Assembly: GCF_000406145.1 (NCBI RefSeq)
Contig: NZ_CM001976.1
Location: 867,260-899,259 of the forward strand
Direction of reading: 5' to 3'
Length of the DNA stretch: 32,000 bases
DNA from: Dickeya dadantii NCPPB 898
GTDB taxonomy: Bacteria > Pseudomonadota > Gammaproteobacteria > Enterobacterales > Enterobacteriaceae
Shown here: positions 1 to 17,618 of the stretch, piece after piece
Layout of the letters: each line of letters opens with the position of its first letter
Numbering within the stretch: the stretch's first letter is position 1
The notes under the pieces: generated by a model
Database searches by the model: none
Seen by the model: the letters and a program-made list of their open reading frames with translations, nothing else
What the model was told of the DNA's origin: nothing
Translations under genes and position numbers: made by a program

Positions 1-867
1 CAGGAGGGGGTGACCGTGGGGCCGGAAGAGAAGGCTGCCATTTGGTCGGCGCTGGAGAGCCTGGCGGGTGCGCCGGTTGAACAGCGTACCCTGACCGGCC
101 TGTCGGTCCTGTTGCAGTCGCTGACGTTGCGTCAGGCACTGGCGCCGTATGTGCTGGGCGGGGCGTACGGCAACCTGCTGGATGCCGATCGGGAACGGCT
201 GGGCGACGCTGATGTGCAGTGCTTTGAAATGGAGGCGCTGATGCCCAGCAAGGCCGCGGTACTGGCGGTGCTGGAATACCTGTTCGCCCGGCTGGAAAAC
301 CGTTTTGACGGCGCGCCGACGCTGTTGCTCTTGGATGAATCCTGGCTGTTTCTTGATGAACCGGTGTTTGCGGCGCGTATCCGGCAGTGGCTCAAGACAC
401 TGCGCAAGAAAAACGTCAGTGTGATATTCGCCACCCAGTCGTTGGCGGATATCCAACGCTCTGCCCTGGCACCGGCCATCATCGAAAGTTGCCTCAGCCG
501 GATTTTCCTGCCCAATCCACAGGCCAGCGAACCCCAGATCCGGGTCATCTATGAGGGGTTTGGTCTTAACGCCCGGCAGATAGCCATGCTGGCTGCCGCA
601 GAGCCCAAACGGGATTACTACTACCAGTCCCGACAGGGCAACCGCCGGTTCGATCTCGATTTGGGGCCGGTGGCGCTGGCGTTTGCCGCGGCGGCCTCAC
701 CACAGAGTCAGCGTGATATAGACCGCCTGCTGGCACAGGACCCTCGTCCGGATTTCGCCAGCGCCTGGTTGCGTCACCGGGGGCTGGCGTGGGCGGCCGA
801 CCTGCTGCCGGGGTTTACTCCAGCAGCGCAGCCGATTTCCTCTCCACCGTGCAGGGGGACACCGTGA
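1..867 (+). CDS. trbE: TrbE/VirB4 T4SS ATPase, C-terminal part (5' end outside window)
   Basis: The frame is open from nt 1 to the TGA at 865-867. It contains VirB4-type motifs LLLLDESWLFLDEP and VIFATQSLADI. It is followed directly by trbJ. Confidence 0.85.
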   Translation, partial: QEGVTVGPEEKAAIWSALESLAGAPVEQRTLTGLSVLLQSLTLRQALAPYVLGGAYGNLLDADRERLGDADVQCFEMEALMPSKAAVLAVLEYLFARLENRFDGAPTLLLLDESWLFLDEPVFAARIRQWLKTLRKKNVSVIFATQSLADIQRSALAPAIIESCLSRIFLPNPQASEPQIRVIYEGFGLNARQIAMLAAAEPKRDYYYQSRQGNRRFDLDLGPVALAFAAAASPQSQRDIDRLLAQDPRPDFASAWLRHRGLAWAADLLPGFTPAAQPISSPPCRGTP

Positions 868-1598
868 TGAAAACTGTGTGGCTTGTCATCCTGCTGGCGT
901 TGCTGCCGCTGCGTCCAGCGCAGGCACTGACGGTATTTGATCCTGCCAACTATGCGCAGAACACGCTGAGCGCCGCCCGGGCATTGGATCAGATCAACAA
1001 TCAGGTCATCCAGTTGCAGAACGAGGCGCAGATGCTGATTTATCAGGCCCGCAACTTGACTAGTCTGCCGTTCACGGTAACCGATCAACTGCGTACCACG
1101 CTGGCGGGCACGGACCGGTTGATCGCCCAGGCGCGTGGACTGGCCTATGAGGTGCAGCGCATGGACTCGGATTTTGCGCGGCTCTACCCCGAACAGTATG
1201 CCGCCACGGTGGGCCACGATCGCCTGTATCAGGATGCCCGCGCGCGCTGGGTCAACACGCTGGCAGGCTTGCATACCGCTTTGCAGATGCAGGCACAGAT
1301 GGTGCAGAGCCTGTCGGCGGACGAAAGCACGCTGTCCGCGCTGGTCGGGCAAAGTCAGGCGGCCACCGGTGCCCTGCAGGCCATGCAGGCGACAAACCAG
1401 TTGCTGGCGTTGCAGGCGAAACAAACGATGCAAGGCCAGCAGCTCCAATTGACGCAGGACCGGGCGGTTGCGCTGGAGTTGGCGCGACAGGCAGCGGCGG
1501 TTGAACGCGGCCGGGAAATCACGCGACGTTTTCTGGGTACGGGAACCCCTTACACGCCGCAGCCGGTGAACTTTTACGGTAAGGACGGCGGTGAGTGA
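867..1598 (+). CDS. trbJ: TrbJ (VirB5-like) T4SS periplasmic protein
   Basis: The ATG at 867 overlaps the trbE stop (GTGATGA). The N-terminus is a signal peptide, MKTVWLVILLALLPLRPAQA. The mature part is coiled-coil rich (VFDPANYAQNTLSAARALDQINNQVIQLQNEAQML). The track ORF starts at 789, but the signal peptide favours 867. Confidence 0.8.
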   Translation: MKTVWLVILLALLPLRPAQALTVFDPANYAQNTLSAARALDQINNQVIQLQNEAQMLIYQARNLTSLPFTVTDQLRTTLAGTDRLIAQARGLAYEVQRMDSDFARLYPEQYAATVGHDRLYQDARARWVNTLAGLHTALQMQAQMVQSLSADESTLSALVGQSQAATGALQAMQATNQLLALQAKQTMQGQQLQLTQDRAVALELARQAAAVERGREITRRFLGTGTPYTPQPVNFYGKDGGE

Positions 1599-2761
1599 TG
1601 GACGATGTGTCGGTGATTGACCGCTTCCTCGATACCTTTTCGACCTACATCGACTCTGGGTTTGGGTTGGTTCGCGGTGAAGTCTCCTTTCTGACCGCCA
1701 CGCTGGTGGCGATCGACATGACGCTGGCGGGGTTGTACTGGGCGCTGTCGCAGGCGGGCGGGCAGGGAGAGGATGTGATGGCACGGCTGATCCGCAAGGT
1801 GCTCTATGTCGGCGCGTTTGCTTACATACTCAACAACTTCAACGGGCTGTCGGGAATAGTGTTTCGCTCATTTGCCGGGCTGGGCCTGCAGGCCGGTGGC
1901 GCGGCGTTGACTCTGGCGACGTTTTTACAACCCGGGCGGTTAGCCAAAACCGGTATAGAGACGGCTGCCCCTCTGCTGCATCAAATCGACCGCTTGAGTG
2001 GCTTCCCAGATGTGTTCATCAATATTGTGCCCGTCACCGTCATGCTGCTGGCCTGGTTGGTGGTGGTCCTGAGTTTCTTCGCACTGGCGATACAGCTGTT
2101 CGTCACGTTGGTGGAGTTCAGGCTGACCACACTGGCGGGGTTTGTGCTGGTGCCGTTCGCACTGTGGAACAAGACGGCGTTTCTGGCAGAAAAAGTGCTG
2201 GGTAATGTGGTGGCCTCCGGCGTGAAGGTGCTGGTACTGGCGGTGATCGTGGGGATCGGCACCGGTCTGTTCGGTTCGCTGACCCTGAACCCGGATGACC
2301 CGTCGATGGATCAGGCGCTGGTCGCCATGCTGGCGTCGCTTGCGCTGCTGGCCCTGGGGATTTTCGGACCGGGGATTGCCACCGGGCTGGTCAGTGGCGC
2401 GCCGCAACTGGGAGCCGGAACGCTGGCCGGAACGGCGCTGGGAGTGGCCGGCGTCGCGGCGGGAACCGGCGTGCTGGCGGGGCGGATAGGCAGTGCGGTG
2501 GGGGCCGGGGCGCGTCTGCTGCCGACGGCGTTACGCGGGCCGCAAGCCAATACGACCCCGTCGGCTACCGGACAACCGGGGCGGGAGGCCGGTTCATCCG
2601 GTTCGTCAGCCACGGCACAGCCGGACTGGGCGAAGCGGCTATATCGCCGTCAGCAACTGGCGCAGGCGGCGGGCACGGTGGCGCATACGCTGCGCAGTGC
2701 CGAGCACGGTGGCGGCAGCAGCGGCCCGACTCTGCGTGAATCCGACCGGGAAGGGGGCTGA
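1595..2761 (+). CDS. trbL: TrbL (VirB6-like) polytopic inner-membrane T4SS protein
   Basis: The start (GTG 1595 or ATG 1598) overlaps the trbJ stop. The protein has multiple hydrophobic helices and a Gly/Ala/Pro-rich C-terminal tail. It sits between trbJ and trbF. Confidence 0.8.
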   Translation: MMDDVSVIDRFLDTFSTYIDSGFGLVRGEVSFLTATLVAIDMTLAGLYWALSQAGGQGEDVMARLIRKVLYVGAFAYILNNFNGLSGIVFRSFAGLGLQAGGAALTLATFLQPGRLAKTGIETAAPLLHQIDRLSGFPDVFINIVPVTVMLLAWLVVVLSFFALAIQLFVTLVEFRLTTLAGFVLVPFALWNKTAFLAEKVLGNVVASGVKVLVLAVIVGIGTGLFGSLTLNPDDPSMDQALVAMLASLALLALGIFGPGIATGLVSGAPQLGAGTLAGTALGVAGVAAGTGVLAGRIGSAVGAGARLLPTALRGPQANTTPSATGQPGREAGSSGSSATAQPDWAKRLYRRQQLAQAAGTVAHTLRSAEHGGGSSGPTLRESDREGG

Positions 2762-2763
2762 CC

Positions 2764-3468
2764 ATGCGTTTTCGGCGACCGCAGGTGCACTACGGCGAAA
2801 CGCCATCCCCCGCCACGCCGTATCAGGCGGCCGCCGAGGTGTGGGATACCCGTATCGGCACCGCCCGGGTGCAAGCCAGGAACTGGCGATTGATGGCCTT
2901 TGGCTGCCTGCTGCTGGCGTTGCTGATGGCGGCCGGTCTGGTCTGGCGGGCGACGCAATCGGCTCTCGTTCCCTATGTGGTGGAGGTGGAGAAATCCGGC
3001 GAGGTGCGGGCGGTGGCCCCGGCGGTGACGACGTACCAGCCCAGCGAGGCGCAAATCGCCTACCATCTGGCGCGTTTTATCACGCTGGTGCGTTCACTCT
3101 CGCTTGACCCGGTTGTGGTGCGGCAGAACTGGCTGGAGGCCTATGCCTATACCACCGATCAGGGTGCAGCGGTGCTCAACGCCTATGCCCGCGCCCAAGA
3201 TCCCTTTGGCCGTATTGGTAACGAGTCCGTCACGGTGCAGATTGCCAGTGTGGTGCGCTCCAGCGATCGATCGTTTGAAGTGCGCTGGAGCGAACAACAC
3301 TTTGCCCAAGGCACTCCGTCGGAGACCGAACGCTGGACTGCCATGCTGACCGTTGTGCAGCACACGCCGCGTACCGAGCAGCAGTTACGGCTGAACCCGT
3401 TGGGCATCTATATCAACGGCCTGTCGTGGAGCCGGGAACTGGCGATGCCGGAAGGCGGCCAGCCATGA
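2764..3468 (+). CDS. trbF: TrbF (VirB8-like) T4SS protein
   Basis: The ATG lies 3 nt after the trbL stop. There is a single N-terminal TM helix (WRLMAFGCLLLALLMAAGLVW) followed by a periplasmic domain. The position is canonical for trbF. Confidence 0.8.
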   Translation: MRFRRPQVHYGETPSPATPYQAAAEVWDTRIGTARVQARNWRLMAFGCLLLALLMAAGLVWRATQSALVPYVVEVEKSGEVRAVAPAVTTYQPSEAQIAYHLARFITLVRSLSLDPVVVRQNWLEAYAYTTDQGAAVLNAYARAQDPFGRIGNESVTVQIASVVRSSDRSFEVRWSEQHFAQGTPSETERWTAMLTVVQHTPRTEQQLRLNPLGIYINGLSWSRELAMPEGGQP

Positions 3469-4363
3469 CAACGTGGCGGCATTACGGTCCTGGTCTGTTA
3501 CCTGATACTGGCACTGACCGGGTGTCGTGGTATGGGAAACCGGCCACCGGTCGTCGATCTGGACGAACCGGCTCCCACAGCCCCGGTTCCCGGTGCCACC
3601 AGCTTCCATAGTGGTGGGGAAGGGGGAGAACGGAGGGGGCGGACGAATGGGGAGCGAACTGTCGGGTGGTAATACCGGGCGCGCCGCGGATAACAGCGAC
3701 CTGTCGTCCTGGCGCTACGCTGAGGGGACGATGTATCGGCTTTATACGGCACCGGAGCGCGTCACCGTGATTGCCCTGCAACCGGGGGAAACACTGACAA
3801 ATGTGGCGGCCGGTGATACGGCGCGCTGGATTGTCGGCGATACCACCAGCGGCTCGGGCAGCGAACAGCGCGTCAATATCATGGTCAAGCCGGTGCGGGC
3901 CGGGCTGAAAACCAACCTGGTGATCACCACCAGTCGGCGGGTTTATCTGTTGCTGATGACCTCCGGCGGCACGCGCTGGATGGCGACGGTGTCGTGGCAG
4001 TACCCGGCCGACCCGGCGTCGATACCCTCACCAGCCACATCGCCCCGGTCACCGGAAAGCACTCTGGCACCGGACAGACTCCACTTTCGTTACGCTATCA
4101 GCGGTGATCGCCCGCCGTGGTGCCCCCGACAGGTGTTTGATGACGGGGAAAAGGTCTATATCCGGTTTCCGGCCGGTATCGCGCAGGGTGAACTGCCACC
4201 GCTGTTCGTCATCGGCCCACAGGGGGACGGACAACTGGTGAATTACCGGTTCCAGCCGCCGTACTACGTGGTGGACCGGTTGTTCGGGGCGGCCGAGCTG
4301 CGGCTGGGCAATGACAGCGCCGAGGTGGTGCGCATTACGCGTACCGACGGACGGAGCCCGTGA
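3465..4363 (+). pseudogene. trbG: TrbG (VirB9-like) T4SS protein, apparently split over three reading frames (frameshifted or affected by sequence error)
   Basis: The ATG at 3465 overlaps the trbF stop (ATGA), but that frame ends at 3611. The lipoprotein signal ITVLVCYLILALTGC and a Pro-rich linker are read only in the next frame (3481-3669). The conserved TrbG core (MYRLYTAPERVTVIALQPGE, ARWIVGDTTSGSG, VITTSRRVYLLLM) is in the third frame (3527-4363). Confidence 0.6.
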
Positions 4364-5604
4364 ATATGCAACCGGAATCACAGGCGGATAGCACGCCAGC
4401 ACCGTCAGAGAAGGTGGCCTCCGAGACACTGGTGCTGCGCAGCAGGCCACGCCCGGTGACCCGGCTGAACCGGCGCTCGCTGTTCATCCTGACCGGCGGT
4501 TTGGCGCTGGCGGTGCTGGCGGCGACGCTGTGGGCGTTACAGCGCCCCAGGCCGCATGATAACGGTGAACTGGCTGAACGCTATAACGTCGAGCGGGTGG
4601 CGAAAACCGAAGCACTGAACCGGTTGCCGGCGGATTACACCCGGTTGCCGACGAAACCTGCGGAGGTGACGCCTGTGTTGGGGCCGCCGCTGCCGGGGGA
4701 TATGGGGCCGCCCATGATCCGTGCCGCTAAGGCGGTCACACCATCCGGGCCAGATGCTTATGAGTCGGCGAGTCAGGCACGCCTGAAAGAAGCCGAAGAC
4801 GCCGCCGCCTCGCCGGTGTTCTTTCGTCGTGGCAGCCAGCCGGCACCACCACCGGCGTCCACCAGCCCATCTCCGGCCCCGATTGCGACTGACCCTATGG
4901 CCGAGCAGGGGGCGGTTTCCGGTATCCGGCAGGATCAGAAAGAGGCGTTCCTGCTCGGTGACATGACCGATACCCGAAATCACGGCGATCTGCGGCTACC
5001 GGCTTCGCCTTATCAGGTGATGGCGGGAACGGTGATTGCCGGGGCGCTGGTGACCGGTATTCGTTCCGACCTGCCGGGGCCGGTGATCGCCACCGTCACC
5101 GAACCGGTCTACGACAGCGCGACCGGACATTATCTGCTAATCCCGCAAGGCTCGCGCTTGCTGGGGAAATACAATAGCCAGGTCAGCTATGGGCAAAGCC
5201 GGGTTCAGGTGGTCTGGAACCGCATTATCCTGCCGGATACGTCATCGCTGACGCTGGATAATCTGGCCGGTGCCGACCCGGCCGGTTACGTCGGGCTGGA
5301 AGATCAGGTGGACTGGCATTGGGATCGTGTGATTGCCGGTGCAGCAATGACCACACTACTGGGGGTGGGAGCCGAACTCGCTGCCCCGGAGAACCGACAG
5401 CATGGCGATCGTATTATCCTTGCCGGACGTGACAGTTTGCAGGATTCGGTCAGTCAGGTGGGACAAGAGCTCACCCGGCGTAACCTCGATATTCAGCCGA
5501 CACTGACCGAACGGCCAGGTCTGCCGGTTCGTATCATCGTCAACAGGGATTTGGTGTTAAGGCCGTATCAACCACTGTTTTTTAATCAGGGGAGTGCACG
5601 TTGA
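4360..5604 (+). CDS. trbI: TrbI (VirB10-like) T4SS protein
   Basis: GTG 4360 or ATG 4366 overlaps the trbG stop. The protein has an N-terminal TM helix and a Pro-rich region. The conserved C-terminal domain reads YQVMAGTVIAGALVTGIRSDLPGPVIATVTEPVYDSATGHYLLIPQGSRLLGKY...VVWNRIILPD. Confidence 0.9.
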   Translation: MNMQPESQADSTPAPSEKVASETLVLRSRPRPVTRLNRRSLFILTGGLALAVLAATLWALQRPRPHDNGELAERYNVERVAKTEALNRLPADYTRLPTKPAEVTPVLGPPLPGDMGPPMIRAAKAVTPSGPDAYESASQARLKEAEDAAASPVFFRRGSQPAPPPASTSPSPAPIATDPMAEQGAVSGIRQDQKEAFLLGDMTDTRNHGDLRLPASPYQVMAGTVIAGALVTGIRSDLPGPVIATVTEPVYDSATGHYLLIPQGSRLLGKYNSQVSYGQSRVQVVWNRIILPDTSSLTLDNLAGADPAGYVGLEDQVDWHWDRVIAGAAMTTLLGVGAELAAPENRQHGDRIILAGRDSLQDSVSQVGQELTRRNLDIQPTLTERPGLPVRIIVNRDLVLRPYQPLFFNQGSAR

Positions 5605-5651: not shown

Positions 5652-6197
5652 TTATCTGGAACGGTAGCGTGCCGACACATCCCGGGCGGTATGCAATAGC
5701 CGTAAGATATGTACGTCGCCGCTGTGGCGTTTCAGCGCATAGACCAAAATAAACGGCAGCCGGGCCAGCACCAGTTTACGCCGTTCTCCCGATTTCCCTA
5801 TGCTGACGCCCGCTTCCGGGGTGGTTTCCAGCAACGCCACTGCGGCGGCGAATTTGTCATCGGTGGCATTGGCGACCTCCAGTCCCGCGTTCTGGTACAG
5901 GTAACGGTAAATGTCTTCGCGGTCAGCGATAGCTTGCCTTTCCCAGCGAACCGTTGCCGTCACAGTTCCCCCCGGGCGGCTTGCGCTTTCAGTCGCCGCC
6001 ATACGTTGACTGGCCTCATCATTGCTGATGAACTGGACCTCACCAGCATCGTAACGGGCGAAAGCCTCCTGAATTTTCGCTTCCAGCCATTCATCACCGG
6101 TATGGCGCTGGTACTGCCGCTCTTCCTCGGCCAGTTCTTCCGCACGCTGGCGCATCAGTTCGGTAAGACTGACCTGCTGACGCTCAGCAGCCTTCAT
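5652..6197 (-). CDS. ParE/RelE-family toxin-like domain fused in frame to an upstream ParD-like (stability-determinant type) antitoxin-like region
   Basis: This is one uninterrupted ORF (the track gives 5652-6299). The C-terminal half resembles ParE toxins (VRWERQAIADREDIYRYL...RKLVLARLPFILVYALKRHSGDVHILRLLHTARD). The N-terminal half resembles small helical antitoxins (WLEAKIQEAFARYDAGEVQFISNDEASQRM). No stop codon separates the two parts. The start is uncertain: ATG 6197, ATG 6290 or TTG 6299. An internal ATG at 6002 could initiate the toxin part alone. Confidence 0.6.
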   Translation of the reverse strand: MKAAERQQVSLTELMRQRAEELAEEERQYQRHTGDEWLEAKIQEAFARYDAGEVQFISNDEASQRMAATESASRPGGTVTATVRWERQAIADREDIYRYLYQNAGLEVANATDDKFAAAVALLETTPEAGVSIGKSGERRKLVLARLPFILVYALKRHSGDVHILRLLHTARDVSARYRSR

Positions 6198-6687
6198 AGC
6201 CAGTACGTTTGGTTTCCTCGTCAATTCTGAAGTGTATTGTCCCCATGACAGCCTCCAATAGATTGCATGTGTTGTCACTTGTGGTGTCATTTTATCCAAT
6301 CTCGTCAGTTTTTGCTGCTTTTTTGAAGGGGAGAATCGGCTTACCGTGTAACGCTGCTCTCAGGATACAGTGGCGGTTTTGTTGTAGAGGCTAGCATCTA
6401 ACATAATGTATATTAGCTCAGACCTGAACTGGCACTGTTTACTGCGCAGAACTAAACTTAATCTGACAGGCTGCTTTGTGCTAGGAGCGGGCATACAATA
6501 TCAGTCTAATTGGAATCGGAATTGCCGTTTTTAGCTACATCGACTTAGTGGACATCGAAACACGTATCAGTCAATTTCCCTAAAGCCAGCCCTTATACAT
6601 GGATGCATGGCATTAGCCTTTTCAGAGCTTGCGCTTTGGCAGTATCGCAGTTTCATAGGTTTTTAAAATAAGGGGTTAAGGGTACAG

Positions 6688-7956
6688 GTGTTGCTAATCA
6701 AATTCCTTCGAATAATGGCATACTTTCCCAACCATACGGCGAGTTTCCTTAAAACTTATAATAACTTTATGACGAATATTCCTGCTTTTAATGAGAAAGG
6801 GTATCTGCCAGAAGGCACCCACAGTTGTTCTGAGCAACAATTTATTGAGCGCTTCTGTACGATCAGCGAAGAACGCTCGGATCTAAAACAAGCATTTATC
6901 GATATTCTGGATTTCGCAAACACGCGCAATGCAATATGTGTTTACGTCGGCGGTTCTTATGTTACAAGGAAACAAAATCCAAACGATTTGGATGTCGTAA
7001 TCGTATTTCGGAACAAAGAGCACATCCCATCGAGATCTGAACGATGGATTATTGATGGAAAGCGTACAGATATTATGTTTTGCTCGGCTGACGATCCCGT
7101 CGTTACCGCGTCATTTATAAAACTGCTGTCTTTCGAGCGCTACGGCAGTAGCGTGGGTGTAATTCAAATCAATCTTGACCACACAGATGAACCGTGGACG
7201 ACTCATCATGAACCAGATGACAATACCTACGAAGTCATCAAAAGAACCTATTTCAACCGACATCTGGTCGACTTGAACAAGGCATCGGGGGTGCTGGTTA
7301 CTATCCACGGGATAATGACGCATGCGGAATGGAATGCGAATATTATCCCTATTGCGAGCAGTCAAGGGTGGATCGTCGCCCCTTACATTTACGGTTATAC
7401 CACTCCTGACATCCTTTTGAATAAAGGGAAACGAAAAGAAGCGGTGGACGCCTTTAGGGACTGGATTTATTCGATTAAGCAGGATTTTTGCCGGAACGGT
7501 GAAGCGATTTCAGTGATTGCACACTCCTTTGGAACCTATCTGATAGGTGCTTACCTTGATGGTTTCAATGAAGTTTCTCCGGTCCGTTTCAACACAATTA
7601 TTCTTACCGGCAGCATTCTGAATGAAGGCTATGATTGGGAAAGTTGTATCGGCTATAAAGTTGCGCGGGTCAGAAACGAAATAGCACCCAACGACCAGTG
7701 GGTAAGCTTGATGCAGAGGAATCCATCAGAATGGCTTGGCCTCGATCCACTCTTTGGCCAAGCAGGAGCAAAAGGCTTTACCTCTCAGAGTCGTATTCTT
7801 ACGCAGCACACCAATAAAATTTTCGATCACAATAATGTCATTAAAAAAGATGTCATAACATCAATGTGGATGCCGTTTCTGAACAGCAATAAGTACGCGT
7901 CAGATGAAGAATATTATAAGCGCTACATGGGGCATTCTAAAAATGGCGGCCAATAA
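6688..7956 (+). CDS. Fusion protein: N-terminal Pol-beta-superfamily nucleotidyltransferase (DUF6932/MNT-like) plus C-terminal alpha/beta-hydrolase (serine esterase/lipase-like)
   Basis: The N-terminal part reads FNEKGYLPEGTHSCSEQQFIERF ... VYVGGSYVTRKQNPNDLDVVIVF, which matches the hG[GS]-x9-13-Dh[DE]h NTase signature. The C-terminal part has an HG oxyanion-type motif (VLVTIHGIMTHAEW), a nucleophile elbow (VIAHSFGTYLIG) and later candidate Asp/His residues (APNDQW, FDHNNV). GTG 6688 is preceded by AAGGG; an alternative start is ATG 6769 (MTNIPAFNEKG). Confidence 0.7.
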   Translation: MLLIKFLRIMAYFPNHTASFLKTYNNFMTNIPAFNEKGYLPEGTHSCSEQQFIERFCTISEERSDLKQAFIDILDFANTRNAICVYVGGSYVTRKQNPNDLDVVIVFRNKEHIPSRSERWIIDGKRTDIMFCSADDPVVTASFIKLLSFERYGSSVGVIQINLDHTDEPWTTHHEPDDNTYEVIKRTYFNRHLVDLNKASGVLVTIHGIMTHAEWNANIIPIASSQGWIVAPYIYGYTTPDILLNKGKRKEAVDAFRDWIYSIKQDFCRNGEAISVIAHSFGTYLIGAYLDGFNEVSPVRFNTIILTGSILNEGYDWESCIGYKVARVRNEIAPNDQWVSLMQRNPSEWLGLDPLFGQAGAKGFTSQSRILTQHTNKIFDHNNVIKKDVITSMWMPFLNSNKYASDEEYYKRYMGHSKNGGQ

Positions 7957-8079
7957 TGAGGAAGCCAGACTCGCACGATTTCTTATGACCGGGATGAGTC
8001 TTTTCAGCAGATAACTGACCATTATTAATGAGAGGCTTCTGTCTAGCGATAATAGTGTTCACTCAACGTAAAGAGTAAT

Positions 8080-8982
8080 ATGACTAATAATCAGTTTTAT
8101 GAACTTTATAGTCGGCTTGCTGCATTACAAACCAGTAACGCTGATTGTCATCCCATTATTGAGGAGCTGACCCGGCTGTGTCTCGAAACAATTAGGAACT
8201 CCTCCTTGCAAGAATGCCTAGCGGTCGCAGCTCTCTGCTTCCGTGAAATTGGTCAGTCAGAGCAGCTTTTCACAGTAGCCCTAGCCTGCTGGCTTACCGA
8301 GGATAAATGTATCGACCTGGCAAAAGTGCTTACGCATGAAGCGAGTGTAAGCCACTTACAGGCAAACAGCCCAGTTGCGTATGATCTTTCTTCCACAGAA
8401 GAATCACGCGCCAGACTGGCAGCGTGCCGGCTTTGTGCACTTCATGTTTCTCCGGCGATATCCCTCGGCTGGACCTTAAGTCTGGCAACCTCCTTCCCTG
8501 CAAGCGCAACTACACTCAACACGGCTCAGGCGCTCCTGCAGCATCATATGAAGGATTATCCGTCGACCACGCTACGACTTCTTTCCAGCCCGAACTCCTC
8601 GTTTTCTTCATTGTTACTGGCGCAAACCGTGCTCAAACGACTGGAACAACAACGAAGCCATCTGAACGCACTGCCGAAACTTCGCGAGCTTGTGATGCCA
8701 CCTGAAATGCGCCTGATATACGCCAGTCTGAAGCGCAGCGAGAACCGGGATATTCAAAGGCAGTCAGAAGAAAAATCGATTTTTGACCAGTTCATCACCA
8801 GGCAGCATTTCAAGTACGCCAGTAAGACAGCTATTGAGGTTCTTACCGGCGATGATGTCAGGGAAACCACCCTGGAGATGATGCCATTTCAGATCGCGAC
8901 AGAGCTACCTTCGACCTGGCTTACCGATCCGGTTTCCGGAGACCTTGCCATGAACAGACAGTGGGAAGGAGTGTTGGAATGA
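8080..8982 (+). CDS. Hypothetical protein, 300 aa, no recognisable domain (composition suggests helical); translationally coupled to the next gene
   Basis: The ORF is clean, with an ATG start. Its stop overlaps the start of the downstream gene (ATGA at 8979-8982). I recognised no family. Confidence 0.6.
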   Translation: MTNNQFYELYSRLAALQTSNADCHPIIEELTRLCLETIRNSSLQECLAVAALCFREIGQSEQLFTVALACWLTEDKCIDLAKVLTHEASVSHLQANSPVAYDLSSTEESRARLAACRLCALHVSPAISLGWTLSLATSFPASATTLNTAQALLQHHMKDYPSTTLRLLSSPNSSFSSLLLAQTVLKRLEQQRSHLNALPKLRELVMPPEMRLIYASLKRSENRDIQRQSEEKSIFDQFITRQHFKYASKTAIEVLTGDDVRETTLEMMPFQIATELPSTWLTDPVSGDLAMNRQWEGVLE

Positions 8983-10658
8983 GCATTCAACTGGTTCTTT
9001 CTCATTATCTGGCCGGTCTGCGCGAGCGCAACGAGCTCGATGCACTGCTGCCTGAATTACTTAAAGCCATGGGGCACTCCGTGCTCAGCCGCCCGCAGAT
9101 TGGCCCAGGGCAGGCAGGCGTTGATGTGTTATCGACCAGACCGGATGGGAACGGTGTCGATGAAGTGTACGCCTTCATCATTAAATTTGGCGATCTCGGA
9201 CGTGCAGACTTTTATGGCGGTCAGCAGTCCATCGATCCGTCCGTGCGAGAAGCATGCACCGACTTCCTCCGAAATCGCCTGCCGGAACACCTCAAGCCTT
9301 TGCGCAAAAAGATTATTCTAGTGTCGAATGGCGTGTTGTTACAGGAAGCTCAGGCTGGCTTTTCAGCCCTGACGGAAGACGTCGCTGAACGGCCGCTCTG
9401 TAGACTCGAATTCTGGGGTAGCGATCAGCTCACACCCTTGATAGAGCGGTTTCTGTTCGACGAAACATTGCTGTTGGCCCAAGGAAAATCCGATTTGCGT
9501 GCAGCCCTTGCGGGTCTTGAAGAGTCGGGAGCAGCAATAGGTCGTTTCGTTCGCTTTGTTGATGCCTGTTTTGAATGCCCTACCGAGGAAATGAAGCAGA
9601 GTAAAGCAACGCGCAAGAAAAAGTTTTTGAGACGCTGCGCTGCAGCCGCTATGGGCTGGGCGGTACTACTAGTCTGGGGCAAAAGCGAGGGGAATCTAAA
9701 ACCTGGCGTTGTTACTGGGGAGTATTTGCTACTGCGCATGTGGGCCGAGGCGGTAAAACTTCAGCTAGATGCTGACCGCGCGTTTATCAACCGATTTGAA
9801 ACCATGGTGGACATGCAGACGCAGGCTCTGGTGGACTACTTTGAGAAGGTGATGCCCACACTAGAGATACCGCGTGCGGTCCTCTCGTATCGTCCGGAAC
9901 GCATCTTCTATCTGGAGCTTATGTTTGAGGAACTGGGACGCTTGGCCACCCTTCTGTTACTACTCCAGCGAAAACCCGATCAGGAGGAGTTTCGGACACG
10001 GATCCTGACGGCCATCATTCACCTGGTGAACCAGCATCCGGGTGTACGGCTTCCTCTGTATGACGGACATACCATTGACCTCACCCTGATCTTCTGTGCA
10101 CTGATGGGGGAGTCGGACTGGAGCAACACCCAGATTCTTGCTGGTGAAGTTGTCGCCCGGCTCCTCTGTGCACTGAAAACAGATTGCTACCTGCCTGTCG
10201 ACACCGACTCTCTGGAAGATGCCATCGCGCTCGACAGAGGACATGCCGCCAGCCGGGATTTCTTCCAGACATCAACGCTTGTACCGGCACTGGCTACTGT
10301 GGCGTCAGTGCTCGATGACGAAGAAAATCTTGAAGCCTTGCGCAGTCACGTGCTGCCATTGATGAAAGGAGTCACGCTTGAGCGCTGGTATCCCACTTCG
10401 TTACTCGAAACGCTCAGCGGATCACTGCGGGGGGTTCAGAGTGTCGGTATATCCAGAGCGCTGTCCGGACTCAGGCCTTCAACAAGGGAAGAGGCTGAGG
10501 CGTCAATTAAAACATTTGACGGTATGGCGTCCCCCTCGGACTTCAGATGGTCAGGTCGCTGGCAGGTGCTGATCGCGCTGTCAGCACGCCTGCATCGACA
10601 TCCCTTACCCACCTGGTTTATTGCTGAGTACAGGCGACCGGAACATTTCACTGAGTAG
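8979..10658 (+). CDS. Hypothetical 559-aa protein with an N-terminal Mrr-like / PD-(D/E)xK restriction-endonuclease-like domain and a long unassigned C-terminal region
   Basis: The ATG at 8979 is preceded by GGGAAGGAG. The N-terminus reads LDALLPELLKAMGHSVLSRPQIGPGQAGVDVLS...EVYAFIIKFGD...KKIILVSNGVLLQEAQ...LEFWGSDQLTPLIERFL. This follows the Mrr_cat pattern (helix, G-x-D, x-x-K, core strand, trailing helix), although the usual E/Q-x-K reads I-I-K. Confidence 0.65.
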   Translation: MSIQLVLSHYLAGLRERNELDALLPELLKAMGHSVLSRPQIGPGQAGVDVLSTRPDGNGVDEVYAFIIKFGDLGRADFYGGQQSIDPSVREACTDFLRNRLPEHLKPLRKKIILVSNGVLLQEAQAGFSALTEDVAERPLCRLEFWGSDQLTPLIERFLFDETLLLAQGKSDLRAALAGLEESGAAIGRFVRFVDACFECPTEEMKQSKATRKKKFLRRCAAAAMGWAVLLVWGKSEGNLKPGVVTGEYLLLRMWAEAVKLQLDADRAFINRFETMVDMQTQALVDYFEKVMPTLEIPRAVLSYRPERIFYLELMFEELGRLATLLLLLQRKPDQEEFRTRILTAIIHLVNQHPGVRLPLYDGHTIDLTLIFCALMGESDWSNTQILAGEVVARLLCALKTDCYLPVDTDSLEDAIALDRGHAASRDFFQTSTLVPALATVASVLDDEENLEALRSHVLPLMKGVTLERWYPTSLLETLSGSLRGVQSVGISRALSGLRPSTREEAEASIKTFDGMASPSDFRWSGRWQVLIALSARLHRHPLPTWFIAEYRRPEHFTE

Positions 10659-10872
10659 CTGACCAGTTCCCCGTAGAGCAACACGCGTCAATGTTAGGGT
10701 CTGTCCCTTAACCTCCCTACACGCTAAAAAGTGCTGCAAGAATCATTTCCGAGATTTGATTTTTGGTTAAATATCCGTCTATTTTGGTCATTCTTTATCG
10801 CTTAAAAGCGTTTTTTTGCACAGTTATAGCAATGCTGAACTGTACAAAAAATAGTTACGGGACACAGCCTAG

Positions 10873-10936
10873 TCATACCTTCATACCTTCATACCTTCAT
10901 ACCTTCATACCTTCATACCTTCATACCTTCATACCT
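10873..10936. repeat. Perfect tandem octanucleotide repeat, (TCATACCT) x 8
   Basis: Counted directly: eight contiguous identical 8-bp units from 10873 to 10936. The repeat lies in the 464-bp spacer between two convergent genes. Confidence 0.95.
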
Positions 10937-11080
10937 ATGCGAGAACTTTCGCTTCATGCCCTGAGGTATTCAGCAAGCTTTTTATGGCTTCAGTAAGGGC
11001 GATTTCCTCTGTCCAAGTGCCAACAAATATCTCGCTTTGCTATAACGGGTTTTGGTCTTCCAAGAGTGATAAATAATTAT

Positions 11081-11122: not shown

Positions 11123-14100
11123 TTATTTACTACACTTAGCGAATCTGTCTTCTAAAGATTGGCGCAAAGTTTTAAGTTCCCTGACTGATTCAACAACCTG
11201 AGGTGTTGGGGAAGGTTTTCTTGCCTTCAAACACATAGGTCTTAGTTTATCTGGATTTTCACCAGCATAATTTTCATGTCGTAAAAAACTCATGATAAAA
11301 CTTGAAAAGGAACGAATTGAATGCGTATTACTAATCAAACCGTCATCATGGTGAAGCCAGAAAATCAGTTGCTCATAACTTTCGGCAGAGTAGAGAATTG
11401 ATAAATCAGAGATTTGCTTATTTTTTTCATCTCTCAACTTAAAAGCTGAATCTTTATTCATCACCCTAATTCGTTTGTAATTAGCCAAAAAATTAAAAAC
11501 AATATATAAGTAAAAAATCCCAATGACATTAACTAACCCTATCAAGAAGATGATATTTAAAGTCACCTCACCCAAGTCAAAAATATGTGCAGGGATAAAC
11601 TTTTTGACCAGCCAGCACAAGCTATACCCCAGCGCCAAGCAAATTGATAGAAAAACAGCCCCAAAAAAAATTAAAATAGTTGAAGCTTTCAAAAAAACCT
11701 TGATATTTAGATGTTTGATAATCCAGATCATAACATCATGAAATTTAATCTTCTTGCCTTGATGGCGAACCAAAAAAGGAGAAAACATAATAATAACTAG
11801 CAATATCAAAAGTGAAAATAAAATAAAAGATATTACTGTTAAGTTTGTTGGTTTGTTTACTAAATTTACTGTAATTATAATCCAAGAGGCCAGCAGAATC
11901 GCGAAAGAAAACGTGAAATCTATTTCAATTTTTGAGCTTTGGTAATTATTTTTAATGTGCCTTAACGAGTGTCGTGGTAGCATATCCATTGCAACAAGCA
12001 TTGAGTTTGCTACAGTGGTAATAATAGAAAAGGGGTTAATTAATAAGAACCGTGGTAGAGATTTTTTGAAAAATTCAAGGTTGTTTCTCAAACGCTTACC
12101 TCGCGAGACAACAATATTTGCCCCCATATCTGAAGGTAACCTCGCCGCCAAAGCTTCAATAGTTAGTAATTCCTCTCTATTTTTAGCGAGTATAACTTGG
12201 TCTGAGAGCATTCTCAAAACAACCGCTCTTGCCTCGTCTGGAAGCTTAGAAGCAAATGCCGCTTGCCTGAAAGCATTTTGCCGCTCAGATTTTGTACCAT
12301 GATTGAACGTCTCTACAAGACAGGCAACTAAAGTATCCTGTGGCAAAAGCCCACCTAAACGAAGTACCTCGCATCGATCCCATGAATCGCCTTTTTCCCA
12401 ACGAGGCATTAGAAACTTAGACGCAGCCAGAGAGAGGTATTCAGGTACGTCATGAATGCGATGAGCTAGTCCTTCCTGTAGCAAACTAAGAAGAGGAATT
12501 GCCTTTTCAGAGGTCCAGTCAAAATAGATCAAATCTTCTGGAAGAGGGGGAGTCCCACAGTGAGTATATTTATTTACCGTACAACTTTCTTCCAGTATGA
12601 CACTGGCTTGCACTAAGATGCTGTTTATTGCTTCAAAACTACAGGTTTGCAAAAGCGTAACAGTGTATTCACGCCAACGGTCCTGTGTAAGAAGCTCTGT
12701 CGCTGAGAGAATATTCGGGTGGCCTGTAAGGTAGCGGACAAATAGAGCTTCCTGATAACGACGGTGAGCAAAAGCAAAACGACGGTCGCCCGGAGCTGCA
12801 TTAGGAACATCGGCCCTTCCAATTTTAGAATCAACTAGTGCAGAAATGAGATTCTCAAGAGATTTCCCAGGAAGCTCTTCATTTTTTAATTTCACCCGTA
12901 TCTGGTCGAGAGAAGGTGCCAGACTCAATGTATCATCTTCTGCAAATAGCCTGGCTAAGCGCTCGGCCCCGATGATCAGTTCTTCAGGATTTAACGTATA
13001 CTTACGAAACAAATAATCTGGTTCACGTTTTGCCAGCCTTTCAATATGCTGCAGCAATATGTCATGATCGTTACTAGGAGCATGTTGCTCATCCCTGACG
13101 TATCGGCACAGTAGTGTTAAGAATAGTGGTGTTGAACCTATACTGCTATGAGAGCCAGCAAGGTGTTGACGAACCAAATTCATATGTTCTTCTTTAAGGA
13201 AAGAATTACGTATCAGTTCATCTTGCTTATCCCCACTCAGTGGTAGAATCCTCAGTTTTTTCCAGGGGAGAGCTTCAGGGCCTTTAAATTCCCGTGATGC
13301 TAATATCCCTTTGCATTCTCCCATGCCCTCCAAGAACTGCCTGAGTGCTTGAGAGTAACTTCTTATTATGTTGTCTCCACTTACCGAATGGAGAACGGCG
13401 GGAATTTCATCAAATGAATCAAATAGGAATAGCCATAATCCTCTGTTACAGTAGTCGTCCCAGTTTTCTTTAACAAATGCTGAAGTATCAGCATCTCCTC
13501 GACGAATATTATCGAGTATGAATTCACGCACGGTATCCACGTTTACTGCATCAGCATTACTGAATTCCATCTCACGAAGGTTGATATAAAGCGGGACTGT
13601 TGCATTTTTATCATTTGATTTTTTACCTTGCTCAGCTAACTGCTTTGCAAGATGCCGTAATGCCACACTTTTCCCTGACCCAGGTTCACCGACCAGTTGC
13701 ATCGCACGCTCAGTACTGGATGTGATGGCTCGAACAAGCGAGCGTTCCTTACGTAATCCAAAAGATTTTTTTCTGCGCAACTTGTCTATGGCAGAAGCAT
13801 AATACCCTCCCTCAGATTCCACCTCAGCTTCAAGGTCAGTAAAATATTGATCATTCCAGTTTTCTGCTTTAGCCAAATAAGCAAGGTCTGCTTCAAGTAC
13901 TGCACAAAATTGCTTTCTTCTTCTAACTCTTTTTTCATTGTCTTTGCTTAACCAAACAGGAAGGCCACTGGTTTTGTATATCTCAATGAATTTTATGAGA
14001 AGCTCAATTACTTCCCCAAACGATTTTAATAAAAATATTACTATACATCCCCCTATTGTAATAATAAATAAAGCCAAAATCAACCAGTGCCATATATCTT

Positions 14101-14194
14101 GAGATGTATTATTAGACCATAATGAATTAAATATTCTTTCAATGATTTCCAATCCTTTTTCTGAAATGCTAACTGATTCATCTTCTTTTGCCAC
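11123..14194 (-). CDS. Membrane-embedded NACHT/STAND NTPase (1023 aa): N-terminal TM helix, NACHT module, helical repeat region, four C-terminal TM helices and a ~120-aa tail
   Basis: Motifs present: Walker A LVGEPGSGKSVALRHLA, VPLYINLREM, Walker B LWLFLFDSFDEIP, GILASREF...LRILPLSGDKQDELIRNSF, and winged-helix-like RRFAFAHRRYQEALFVRYL. Hydrophobic helices are WHWLILALFIITIGGCIVIFLL (aa ~35-57) and four more at aa ~755-904 (FAILLASWIIITVNLV, VISFILFSLLILLVIIMFSPFLV, ASTILIFFGAVFLSICLALGYSLCWLV, VTLNIIFLIGLVNVIGIFYLYIVFNFL). Confidence 0.85.
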   Translation of the reverse strand: MAKEDESVSISEKGLEIIERIFNSLWSNNTSQDIWHWLILALFIITIGGCIVIFLLKSFGEVIELLIKFIEIYKTSGLPVWLSKDNEKRVRRRKQFCAVLEADLAYLAKAENWNDQYFTDLEAEVESEGGYYASAIDKLRRKKSFGLRKERSLVRAITSSTERAMQLVGEPGSGKSVALRHLAKQLAEQGKKSNDKNATVPLYINLREMEFSNADAVNVDTVREFILDNIRRGDADTSAFVKENWDDYCNRGLWLFLFDSFDEIPAVLHSVSGDNIIRSYSQALRQFLEGMGECKGILASREFKGPEALPWKKLRILPLSGDKQDELIRNSFLKEEHMNLVRQHLAGSHSSIGSTPLFLTLLCRYVRDEQHAPSNDHDILLQHIERLAKREPDYLFRKYTLNPEELIIGAERLARLFAEDDTLSLAPSLDQIRVKLKNEELPGKSLENLISALVDSKIGRADVPNAAPGDRRFAFAHRRYQEALFVRYLTGHPNILSATELLTQDRWREYTVTLLQTCSFEAINSILVQASVILEESCTVNKYTHCGTPPLPEDLIYFDWTSEKAIPLLSLLQEGLAHRIHDVPEYLSLAASKFLMPRWEKGDSWDRCEVLRLGGLLPQDTLVACLVETFNHGTKSERQNAFRQAAFASKLPDEARAVVLRMLSDQVILAKNREELLTIEALAARLPSDMGANIVVSRGKRLRNNLEFFKKSLPRFLLINPFSIITTVANSMLVAMDMLPRHSLRHIKNNYQSSKIEIDFTFSFAILLASWIIITVNLVNKPTNLTVISFILFSLLILLVIIMFSPFLVRHQGKKIKFHDVMIWIIKHLNIKVFLKASTILIFFGAVFLSICLALGYSLCWLVKKFIPAHIFDLGEVTLNIIFLIGLVNVIGIFYLYIVFNFLANYKRIRVMNKDSAFKLRDEKNKQISDLSILYSAESYEQLIFWLHHDDGLISNTHSIRSFSSFIMSFLRHENYAGENPDKLRPMCLKARKPSPTPQVVESVRELKTLRQSLEDRFAKCSK

Positions 14195-14898: not shown

Positions 14899-15663
14899 CT
14901 ATAGTAGATAAGGCCTTCTGCGCTTTTCTGCCAACGCATCCGCCTGACTAAGATTCACTCTTATGCGGCCATTAAAATCCCCGCCATTCAGCCAGGAAAA
15001 CAGGCAGGCATCAGTACGCTGAATAAACGGATTAAGTTCGATCAACATTGTGTCGTATTGTCCGTTCTGATGGGTAATTGCGATATCTGCAACAACACTA
15101 TCCATATGTAGTAACGGTATCAATTTTTGCAGAAACTGAATGATTTGTTGGCGTATTTCATCGGCATGTTCGGTTAAGAAAGGAAAATATTCCAGACAAT
15201 GATATTGGGATACACCGACGACGTTACCATCCTTTATAAAGCACCTGAATTCGCTCCATCGTGGAATATCATGCCATCCCCGCAAAAATAGCCAGGCTGG
15301 TGTTGATGATTGCAGACAATCCCAAAGATAGGATGCCACTCGATGACTGGAAACAGACAATTGCCTGATCACGTCATCCACGCTGTTGGCCCGCGGAATG
15401 GTTGCTTCATGATAACTGACACCACCAAATCTCACGAAAACCGGCGTAGTAAATTTCGACAATATATACTCGATATCATCGCGTAATTGTTCAGAAAATA
15501 GTGGCTTTTCCAGTAATCGTTTCGCATCCATGAACTCGCTAGTACAAGCACCGATCGCTATAACGTCCCGTTCATGAAGCTCAATGCCTTCGCTCTGGAA
15601 AGAAAGCGTCAAAAGCGTTTCCGGCCAGTTTTCGATAAAAGTCTGTTTGTGCTCAGTGTACAT
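14899..15663 (-). CDS. Cdc123/D123-family (R2K clade) ATP-grasp protein
   Basis: It aligns by eye to eukaryotic CDC123. [14 protein letters not shown] matches [45 protein letters not shown] matches [50 protein letters not shown] matches WLIDFNPFGEVTDSLLFTW. Confidence 0.8.
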   Translation of the reverse strand: [254 protein letters not shown]

Positions 15664-15711
15664 ACCAACTCAGCCTTGACGTTATAATGTTATTGCGCCT
15701 GCGTACCAAAA

Positions 15712-16236
15712 TTACAACTTATCTTCTGACGTTGGTGTGTATAGAAATTCTTTTAGCGATAGAGCTAACAATCCTAACCCATCACCAACCGATAGATTGT
15801 CGATGTAATATCGCCAGTGAAATACACTTTTATATGTTGGGGAGTTGGGTCTTACGTCGTATATAATATATGCATCACCATCATCGTCATAGTCTGAACC
15901 AATTGCGATAAGACCAGTCGGTAATAGTGATCTGTTTTCGTATATTGATTCTTTTAAAAGATTAGTCGAGCTGATTACCTGTTCTGTGGGGAATAAGATA
16001 GCCATTAATGCTTTTCTCACTCTTCCATCATACCGCACTAAAAAATGATCTATATCTTCTAGCGGACCGCAAGCTTGATCGGCAACCAGATGAATATAAT
16101 CTTTATATTCATCTGGCAAGTGAACCTGAAGTTTTTCTTCGATATCCCCGATTCTTTTGTTGATCGTTACAGATTCAATAACTAAATCAGGATCATCCGT
16201 TTCCCACTTAACCAAATCTTCTTTCTGTATTTCCAT
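15712..16236 (-). CDS. SMI1/KNR4 (SUKH-superfamily) immunity protein
   Basis: The ATG at 16236 lies 1 nt after the toxin stop (TAG 16238-16240). It carries the SUKH-type motif IEEKLQVHLPDEYKDYIHLV. It sits immediately 3' of the nuclease effector. Confidence 0.7.
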   Translation of the reverse strand: MEIQKEDLVKWETDDPDLVIESVTINKRIGDIEEKLQVHLPDEYKDYIHLVADQACGPLEDIDHFLVRYDGRVRKALMAILFPTEQVISSTNLLKESIYENRSLLPTGLIAIGSDYDDDGDAYIIYDVRPNSPTYKSVFHWRYYIDNLSVGDGLGLLALSLKEFLYTPTSEDKL

Positions 16237-16237
16237 A

Positions 16238-17203: not shown

Positions 17204-17231
17204 GGCTTTCTCCTTTGATGGTCTAACCGGT

Positions 17232-17618
17232 TCACTCCGGAAACCAGTAATTCGGGTGACTCTTCATAACGGCATCTGCACCTTGATCTTCGCTGACGTC
17301 GGTGAAGAGTGCCTCCAGCCGCTCATCTTCACTCCGCTCTGTATCCGTAAGGATTTGCTTAAAGCCATCAAATTCAAAGAAGTTCGATCCGATACCCCAC
17401 ATGAAATACAGGAATTTCGCCTGGTTAGTCGGCTTGTGGATATTGAGTTTTTTAGCGATTTCCCTGCCATTCAGCGTCATCGTATACAGCGTTTCCGGCG
17501 TATGCCCTTGCTTGTGTTCCGGCAGCGATGCTTCCATCACCTCGTCGACAAACCATCGGGAGAAGTCTTTATCGCTCATCAAATGCGATTCCATTTGCAG
17601 GTCGTCAAAGTGCCACAT
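17232..17618 (-). CDS. Hypothetical 128-aa protein between the DUF4123 adaptor and the effector (possible co-chaperone or accessory)
   Basis: The ATG at 17618 is preceded by AGGAG at about 10 nt. It overlaps the 3' end of the DUF4123 gene by 14 nt. I recognised no family. Confidence 0.5.
   Translation of the reverse strand: MWHFDDLQMESHLMSDKDFSRWFVDEVMEASLPEHKQGHTPETLYTMTLNGREIAKKLNIHKPTNQAKFLYFMWGIGSNFFEFDGFKQILTDTERSEDERLEALFTDVSEDQGADAVMKSHPNYWFPE

Follow-up and report, generated by a model that had tools for sequence, protein, structure and literature searches.

What is the role of a protein in which a nucleotidyltransferase is joined to a serine hydrolase, and does it act alone or with the genes that follow it? 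The question is raised by a gene in a 32,000 nucleotide (nt) stretch of the genome of Dickeya dadantii NCPPB 898 (contig NZ_CM001976.1, positions 867,260 to 899,259), here called the window. The gene, referred to below as the fusion gene, is at positions 6769..7956 (+ strand, stop codon included) and encodes a protein of 395 amino acids (aa). The N-terminal part is a DUF6932 nucleotidyltransferase (NTase) domain and the C-terminal part an alpha/beta hydrolase. Immediately downstream is a gene pair similar to the Olokun defence system. An initial annotation of this DNA had described an unusual fusion and proposed either a self-contained sensor-effector or a third component of the downstream pair. 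The best explanation is an autonomous conflict module with the hydrolase as effector and the NTase as trigger or regulator, a reading that has about an even chance of being correct.

The gene and its two domains

The open reading frame (ORF) on which the initial annotation was based, 6688..7956 (+), is present in the window with a GTG start at 6688 and carries all of the motifs named there, but its start did not hold. The true start is almost certainly the ATG at 6769, because the DUF6932 profile match begins at residue 32 of the long ORF, homologs are 385-400 aa in length with an MxxIP N-terminus, the Klebsiella (392 aa) and Dickeya annotations begin at the position equivalent to ATG 6769, and the Klebsiella gene is similar at the nucleotide level from 6763 onwards. 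The 27 codons of the 5' extension of the mechanical ORF (6688..6768, +) are not conserved in homologs and are probably untranslated. Residue numbering throughout counts from the Met encoded at 6769. A Dickeya dadantii protein with the annotation 'DUF6932 family protein' matches it at 100% identity and belongs to a cluster of two member sequences only; the fusion gene is therefore a rare accessory gene within this species. A scan of positions 6250-8150 for promoter consensus sequences gave no plus-strand match and is uninformative. A terminator consensus scan of the same region found its sole plus-strand terminator-like site inside the fusion gene and none in the 123-nt gap that follows it.

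The DUF6932 domain, a minimal Pol-beta-type NTase domain, covers aa 5-135 (6781..7173, +). The family assignment is firm. Pfam DUF6932 (PF22014) is matched with 74.1 bits against a cut-off of 27 (E=2e-20) over profile positions 1-142 of 142, and the PADLOC candidate profile PDC-M63A matches the same domain at 4.5e-9. Inside the domain is the conserved leader F-x3-G-x-L-P-x-G-x-H, here FNEKGYLPEGTH (6787-6822, +). The catalytic core (6949..6993, +) consists of G61-G62-S63 (6949-6957) and D73-L-D75 (6985-6993). D101 (7069..7071, +) is the third acidic residue of the NTase triad and is located on the neighbouring beta-strand E98-106, as determined by alignment and an AlphaFold2 (AF2) model. There are nine residues between S63 and D73, not ten as first counted. 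The signature hG[GS]-x9-13-D-x-[DE], with a third carboxylate on an adjacent strand, is found in the window protein. Residues G62-S63, D73-x-D75 and D101 are invariant in all 32 homologs aligned, which are 43-83% identical to the window protein, and in 15/15 two-domain members of a wider alignment. The full-length profile match and the invariant catalytic residues bear out the original NTase call, including its DUF6932-type leader. The NTase half is predicted to be catalytically competent from its conserved active site.

The AF2 model of the N-terminal domain alone has a predicted local distance difference test score (pLDDT) of 79.5 and a predicted template modelling score (pTM) of 0.78. In this model G61-G62-S63, D73-x-D75 and D101 fall on three strands next to one another (E55-61, E74-80 and E98-106), as in Pol-beta NTases. 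Nearly all of the top 50 Foldseek matches of this model are Pol-beta-superfamily NTases, each of them weak individually. Prominent are minimal nucleoside monophosphate (NMP) transferases with hydroxyl acceptors, i.e., 2rff from Sulfolobus, ANT(4'), LinB, AAD(9) and MNT/MntA. CCA-adding enzymes rank alongside, and Hailong HalB, Cid1 and AadA are also among the matches. A Pol-beta NTase fold is thus a prediction from sequence and model that is supported by converging weak and strong evidence. The Polbeta profile PF18765 is below threshold (17.5 bits vs a cut-off of 26.9), and the NTP_transf_2 and Polbeta MNT profiles are not reached at threshold. NCBIfam gives no meaningful match for the fusion protein, and PDB sequence searches with full-length and N-domain profiles show nothing significant, with uL13 at an E value of 0.78. 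As a side observation, comparison of the N-domain profile (6769-7218) with the AMPylation domain of Legionella DrrA/SidM (3nku) aligns the G-S...D-x-D motif at a non-significant E=1.3. It is the sole PDB sequence match of this profile and a lead only, although it would agree with AMPylation of a protein.

The C-terminal half is a lid-less alpha/beta hydrolase, lipase/esterase-like, at aa 173-375 (7285..7893, +). The oxyanion-hole motif H180-G181 (7306..7311, +) follows strand E174-179 (beta3), and the nucleophile elbow A-H-S253-F-G (7519..7533, +) follows strand E247-252 (beta5). The catalytic acid D309 (7693..7695, +) is after strand E298-305 (beta7) and the catalytic histidine H354 (7828..7830, +) is after strand E344-348 (beta8). 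H180-G181, S253, D309 and H354 are invariant in 32/32 homologs and, with the wider alignment included, invariant or nearly so; no full-length member of that alignment has a broken hydrolase triad. Both catalytic sets, of the NTase and of the hydrolase, are kept unchanged across phyla. The full-length AF2 model has a pLDDT of 83, with values >90 over most of the C-terminal half. A Foldseek search, one of the fold checks that had been suggested for both halves, finds 55 PDB alpha/beta hydrolases at E<=1e-3 and down to 2e-5, all with probability 1.0. The best fits are lid-less minimal enzymes such as B. subtilis LipA (1i6w/1t4m) with template modelling (TM) scores of 0.61-0.69, the carboxylesterase 4fhz and dienelactone hydrolase. 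The fold matches, the canonical loop placement and the invariant residues all agree with the serine hydrolase that had been proposed from the HG motif, the AHSFG elbow and the downstream Asp and His. A Foldseek comparison with viral structures shows generic alpha/beta hydrolases only. Pfam matches of the hydrolase half are sub-threshold (Ser_hydrolase and DUF900; best 14.6 bits vs a cut-off of 22). No curated Pfam hydrolase family (Ser_hydrolase, DUF900, Hydrolase_4, Lipase_2) is reached, and some homologs carry a precomputed PF12146 assignment.

The two domains are connected by a linker at aa 136-172 (7174..7284, +), which is of low confidence in the AF2 model. Two of its residues, Y161 (7249-7251) and R164 (7258-7260), are invariant in the two-domain form despite the flexibility modelled for aa 148-172. 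It is speculative that Y161 may be the acceptor for self-nucleotidylylation.

The matches of the N-terminal domain to ANT(4'), LinB, AAD(9) and AadA, the resemblance of the hydrolase to carboxylesterases and lipases, and carriage on plasmids would all fit a bifunctional antibiotic- or xenobiotic-modifying enzyme, in which an ANT/Lnu-like NTase and an esterase act on one compound. However, the domain of approximately 135 aa is without the helical substrate-binding domain of ANT/Lnu enzymes, and relatives of the protein are fused to TIR, SLOG, EAD and WD40 domains. In addition, there is no integron, transposon or resistance-cassette setting in any locus examined and no NCBIfam resistance-family match. 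Such an enzyme is highly improbable.

Relation to the downstream Olokun-like pair

The Olokun-like pair detected by PADLOC (8080-10658, +) consists of a half-length OloA and an OloB, encoded by genes that overlap by 22 nt. OloB is 565 aa (PADLOC match 1e-83). OloA is 300 aa and covers only positions 343-587 of the 596-position PADLOC OloA profile, i.e., the C-terminal half. Olokun has been described as a 2:2 complex of an adaptin-like OloA and a PD-(D/E)xK nuclease, OloB (bioRxiv 10.1101/2025.07.10.664194). As a third component, the fusion protein would be a sensor or second effector that substitutes for the N-terminal half missing from the 300-aa OloA. The truncated OloA is in keeping with this, as are the short gap of 123 nt, which has no consensus terminator, and the gene arrangement. 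The trio, with proteins in the order fusion protein, 300 aa and approximately 560 aa, has identical order and strand in Dickeya, five Klebsiella plasmids, the Citrobacter freundii chromosome and Rahnella. Compared with their counterparts in the window, the Klebsiella proteins have aa identities of 84% (fusion protein), 67% (OloA) and 80% (OloB).

The linkage, however, breaks in both directions. The short-OloA/OloB pair is present in 16/21 plasmids with an OloB of >=78% identity where the fusion gene is found nowhere on the plasmid; in pKp1050-2 the pair, of 300 aa and 559 aa, is alone between parG and umuD. Conversely, the fusion gene is without the pair in approximately 26 loci. The pair is missing at L003, L005-L023, L082, L089, L091, L093 and L094. 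Pairless copies are found in Yersinia (79% identity), Pantoea (78%) and Alcaligenes (60%), at P0008 (73%) and P0010 (69%), on an Aliarcobacter plasmid and at all 19 diverse genome loci L005-L023; all copies more distant than those of Yersinia and Pantoea lack the pair. In Rahnella laticis (L004 8934-10887) an IS21 element (IstA 340 aa and IstB 260 aa, opposite strand) splits the fusion gene after codon 311, and the Olokun-like pair downstream is intact.

The sequences themselves also differ. Approximately 100 nt upstream of oloA can be aligned even in a plasmid without the fusion gene, and the GC content is 44% in the fusion gene compared with 50-55% in the pair. The fusion protein has no match at E<=0.1 to the OloA or OloB PADLOC profiles, and the published complex is made of OloA and OloB in 2:2 proportion. 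With linkage broken both ways, the IS21 split, the alignable oloA upstream region and the GC difference, the fusion gene and the Olokun-like pair are independent modules that co-travel in one enterobacterial island lineage. The third-component proposal is largely refuted by this distribution and is very unlikely, and the initial annotation was right to caution that a joint function with the two following genes could not be taken for granted. The candidate that the fusion gene is itself the missing N-terminal half of a split OloA was rejected as well: there is no similarity to the OloA profile, and the short 300-aa form is conserved across 21 enterobacterial plasmids, including those where the fusion gene is absent.

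Family breadth, settings and a proposed mechanism

The fusion had been termed unusual. It is instead conserved and widespread. The full-length architecture of approximately 390 aa is found in at least 243 clusters at 90% identity and in Proteobacteria, Bacillota, Bacteroidota, Chlorobi and Campylobacterota. It is present in Enterobacterales, Vibrio, Aeromonas, Pseudomonas, Alcaligenes, Aliarcobacter, Geomonas and Chlorobaculum, and also in Hymenobacter and other Bacteroidota, Paenibacillus, Bacillus and Priestia. An exhaustive search with the N-terminal domain only shows matches in 481 representative clusters (50% identity). Among the best 150 of these, approximately 30 are N-terminal DUF6932 proteins of 340-420 aa and the remainder are mostly stand-alone proteins of approximately 140 aa. 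The hydrolase is found in every 340-420-aa DUF6932 protein that was scanned or aligned.

Other DUF6932 fusions are TIR-DUF6932, TIR-DUF6932-hydrolase and cpYpsA(SLOG)-DUF6932. The hydrolase module (HG...AHSFG...D...H, 23-35% identity) also occurs without DUF6932 in approximately 55 loci, where its partners are TIR-fn3-WD40, EAD1/EAD7-trypsin, HEAT repeats, unassigned C-terminal domains and transmembrane tails. Three distant relatives are a 1388-aa TIR-hydrolase-fn3 x2-WD40 protein (L029 7455-11621), a 732-aa EAD1/EAD7-trypsin-hydrolase-transmembrane protein (L047 6843-9041) and a 755-aa HEAT-hydrolase-transmembrane protein (L037 6462-8729). Alpha/beta hydrolases have been catalogued as effectors of prokaryotic conflict systems (Kaur et al. 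2020, PMC7159879), and the TIR-, EAD-, WD40- and HEAT-linked hydrolase architectures seen here are typical hallmarks of such systems. Many alphaproteobacterial copies of the hydrolase module (approximately 384 aa) carry an unassigned C-terminal domain of approximately 180 aa.

The triple fusions with TIR are of significance for the roles of the two halves. In the wider alignment, a small sample, the NTase catalytic set is degenerate in 2/3 TIR-containing triple fusions and the hydrolase triad is intact in those. P0164 (L019 7476-9128, Evansella) has GGA, E-I-N and a His in place of D101, and P0192 has N-A-T in place of D-x-D; both are from Bacillales. The third, P0136, retains the NTase motifs. 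Since the hydrolase triad is never lost and the NTase residues decay in two of the TIR fusions, the alignment suggests that the hydrolase is the indispensable output and that TIR may take over the NTase role or make it redundant.

The opposite assignment has the NTase itself as the toxic effector, modifying tRNA or another essential molecule in the manner of MenT/AbiEii, with the hydrolase as a cooperating second enzyme that might remove an ester-linked group before nucleotide addition. Strict conservation of the NTase catalytic residues is in its favour, as is the resemblance of SLOG-DUF6932 to sensor-effector proteins such as ThsA. It is also favoured by the stand-alone DUF6932 proteins (145 aa) on plasmids of Tolypothrix and Nostoc (L084 3498-5401 and L085 3498-5401; Pfam E=1.6e-42 in L084). 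These are translationally coupled to a 487-aa HTH_3 + Peptidase_M78 (ImmA/IrrE-like) protein, so that DUF6932 would be the sole payload there. The loss of NTase residues in 2/3 TIR-containing fusions argues against this assignment, the hydrolase module is a terminal effector-type domain in many other architectures, and no MenT/AbiEii (DUF1814) match was found in profile, PDB-sequence or fold searches. The NTase as principal toxin is distinctly unlikely. Two side observations concern the cyanobacterial loci. The HTH_3 + Peptidase_M78 partner resembles the RmrA and CapH/CapP regulators, and in Tolypothrix a CHAT-domain protein is upstream of the stand-alone DUF6932.

The settings of homologs were compared by an all-against-all analysis of 234 ORFs within 5 kb of the fusion gene at 22 loci. 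No recurrent partner ORF is found among these outside close enterobacterial relatives, and the family therefore behaves as a single-gene module. In Klebsiella plasmids the fusion gene is beside a RES toxin and a Gabija-like-looking pair of an ATP-binding protein and a UvrD helicase; the UvrD-type protein has a homolog next to the copy in Radiobacillus, to which GajA/GajB are assigned, with one matching protein for each of the two in the neighbour set. P0010 has a Pycsar system on one side and a Bub ubiquitin-like system on the other. The Yersinia copy is in a CP4-57-type island with a Gabija-like OLD protein, with CTD10/MC6 conflict genes adjoining, and P0008 is in a P4-like satellite with an adjoining RHS toxin. 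The Alcaligenes copy belongs to the early region of a prophage, together with genes for ERF, YqaJ, RdgC and a methylase. On a Pantoea plasmid the fusion gene is closely followed, on the same strand, by ardA, psiB, psiA and a DNA methylase gene, in a position similar to a leading region. None of the loci examined has a conserved metabolic operon, in agreement with the expectation of variable islands. The association with defence genes and mobile islands is clear qualitatively in the loci examined.

The Pantoea position and the Alcaligenes prophage early region, together with carriage on conjugative plasmids and on an integrated element, would be expected of an anti-defence or establishment factor that is expressed early after entry of a mobile element and neutralises host immunity. 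However, no homolog was found by tblastn in 50,697 phage genomes and only 3 full-length matches are present among 2.9 million viral contigs of IMG/VR. Many chromosomal copies are beside defence systems, and the TIR and SLOG fusions are typical of host immune proteins. The plasmid position is uninformative on this point, because Olokun, which is validated as a defence system, is found at plasmid positions of this kind as well. An anti-defence role is quite improbable. A blastn search of 5,426 complete E. coli genomes gave no match to the gene.

The preferred reading is that the fusion gene (6769-7956) represents an autonomous, single-polypeptide conflict module, most likely directed against phages or mobile elements, that an integrated conjugative element would have brought into Dickeya dadantii among its cargo. 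The hydrolase (Ser253-Asp309-His354) would be the constant effector and may hydrolyze ester bonds, e.g., in membrane lipids, which would stop or kill the infected cell. The DUF6932 NTase would be the trigger or regulator by transfer of a nucleotide to the protein itself (e.g., linker Tyr161), to an oligomer partner or to an invader-derived molecule. The module would act independently of the adjacent OloA/OloB pair. The earlier proposal of a self-contained sensor-effector is compatible with everything found and is preferred, as an inference from architecture and context. That the hydrolase stops the cell and is gated by nucleotidyl transfer from the minimal NTase is the preferred mechanism, with somewhat less than an even chance. 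Modification of a protein or of the module itself is favoured over a diffusible signal because the fold neighbours include many hydroxyl-acting NMP transferases and the domain is without the helical lobe of enzymes that make oligonucleotide signals. This would resemble the gating of HEPN toxins by MNT enzymes through AMPylation. A more specific version is a widespread one-protein immune system in which the NTase would switch the fused lipase-like killer off or on by self-nucleotidylylation, e.g., at Tyr161. It would be a covalent analogue of type VII MNT-HEPN, with TIR replacing the NTase role in some lineages. This version is unlikely, but its probability is not negligible.

Several observations weigh against the autonomous defence module. 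The Foldseek matches of the N-terminal domain are statistically weak (best E 0.036, TM scores 0.3-0.44, none at E<=1e-3). The trio is kept in four genera (Dickeya, Klebsiella, Citrobacter and Rahnella) with a terminator-free 123-nt gap; since no terminator was detected there, co-transcription is possible and read-through to oloA may occur. The association with defence genes and mobile islands is only partial, because many loci have housekeeping-looking neighbours (Clp protease, SAICAR synthetase, ZnuA) and several large neighbours match no PADLOC model. An all-enzymatic protein without an obvious sensor is atypical. In addition, PDC-M63AB, a stand-alone DUF6932 with a partner, is the only relative of the N-terminal domain to have been tested, and it showed no defence in E. 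coli, its native host (bioRxiv 10.1101/2024.12.20.629700).

The family is already present in databases under a name, and PADLOC recognises the N-terminal domain only, as an unvalidated candidate. Among the papers open to searching, none names DUF6932 or PF22014 or reports a defence fusion of an NTase and a hydrolase. The fusion gene is a good, testable one-gene defence candidate, neither unique nor part of Olokun. If the autonomous-module reading is correct, two very common enzyme folds would form a small defence or abortive-infection module that takes one gene and has a wide phylogenetic range. The known nucleotide-based immune mechanisms would be joined by a serine esterase acting as effector under the control of a minimal NTase, and there would be a first functional handle on DUF6932 (approximately 480 representative clusters). 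For annotation, the Olokun-like pair and the fusion gene are to be treated as two separate modules, and the fusion is not to be called unique or unusual.

The surrounding island and comparison with known systems

The fusion gene is located in variable, AT-rich cargo, as had been noted initially, between Trb/VirB conjugation genes and a type VI secretion system (T6SS) hcp-vgrG-toxin cluster beside a transfer-messenger RNA (tmRNA) gene. The conjugation genes on the left side (10-5604, +) have a GC content of 63% and encode TraG, TrbL, VirB8, VirB9 and VirB10. On the right side is the tmRNA gene ssrA (22006-22386, -), followed by smpB-region genes. With conjugation genes to the left of the cargo and ssrA to the right, the sequence fits the integration of one or more elements at an ssrA hotspot. 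A search of the window found no att-like direct repeats bounding the island and no integrase.

Upstream of the fusion gene is a 215-aa ORF (5652-6299, -) with a ParE toxin domain only at aa 117-207. Approximately 115 aa are in frame before the domain and are explained either by a wrongly placed start codon or by an in-frame fusion of an antitoxin-like region to the toxin. Downstream of oloB a perfect octamer microsatellite, (TCATACCT) repeated about 8-9 times (10865-10944), separates oloB from a convergent gene for a 1023-aa NACHT NTPase protein (11123-14194, -; GC 39%; domain at aa 165-332). The C-terminal region of this protein is long and strongly hydrophobic, with the look of several transmembrane segments, and the match of the protein to the antiphage NACHT protein EruA is weak (26 bits vs a cut-off of 1000). 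The gene is probably a further defence component of this cargo block.

The T6SS cargo cluster (14899-21222, all on the - strand) encodes Hcp (20704-21222), VgrG (18231-20567), a DUF4123 adaptor (17605-18252) next to an unassigned 152-aa ORF, a WHH/HNH-type nuclease toxin (16238-17203), a SUKH immunity protein (15712-16269) and a D123 / R2K ATP-grasp protein (14899-15663). The presence of Hcp, VgrG and DUF4123 9 kb away, and of an RHS toxin beside P0008, suggested a T6SS lipase (Tle) effector as a candidate for the fusion protein. This candidate was dropped because a delivery domain (PAAR, MIX or Rhs), an adaptor and an immunity gene are all lacking, and most loci are without T6SS genes.

An NTase paired with an effector is a well-known kind of conflict system, and comparison with several systems places the fusion protein among them. 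The closest relatives of its N-terminal domain are the stand-alone NTases of approximately 140 aa represented by PF22014 and PDC-M63A, which the N-terminal 135 aa match end to end and with which they share the leader G-x-L-P-x-G-x-H, G-S, D-x-D and the third Asp. The window protein differs from these in its fused 200-aa serine hydrolase and in that the partner gene of the helix-turn-helix (HTH) + ImmA/IrrE (M78) type is absent near it. Olokun is its immediate downstream neighbour on the same strand and has no homology to it in either OloA or OloB.

The hydrolase shares a lid-less fold with minimal lipases (B. subtilis LipA; Pfam Lipase_2, DUF676, DUF900) and has an A-H-S-x-G elbow similar to that of LipA. 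Relatives of this module are fused to EAD1/EAD7-trypsin, TIR-fn3-WD40 and HEAT; in the work on alpha/beta-hydrolase effectors of NTP-dependent conflict systems (PMC7159879) the fusion to DUF6932 is undescribed.

MNT-HEPN (MntA-HepT) type VII systems have a similar minimal Pol-beta NTase with G-S...D-x-D, and the gating logic proposed here is alike. The MNT structures 1no5, 7bxo, 6m6w and 7ae9 are among the fold matches of the N-terminal domain. In contrast to MNT-HEPN, the NTase of the window protein is covalently fused, and to an alpha/beta hydrolase; no HEPN match is present in the fusion protein or in the family listing of 135 neighbour proteins, and AMPylation by the window protein is a proposal.

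CBASS (CD-NTase + CapV patatin phospholipase) and Hailong (HalB) likewise combine a Pol-beta-superfamily NTase with a killing effector directed at lipids or membranes, the role that the hydrolase would have here. HalB is among the weak fold matches of the N-terminal domain, and the CD-NTase/SMODS and HalB profiles of Pfam, PADLOC and NCBIfam give no match in the fusion protein. The NTase of approximately 135 aa is without the C-terminal helical lobe of CD-NTases. The putative effector is an alpha/beta hydrolase and not a patatin or ion channel, and the protein is a single polypeptide without a separate sensor or receptor domain. That DUF6932 is also fused to TIR and to SLOG is a pointer to conflict systems centred on nucleotides.

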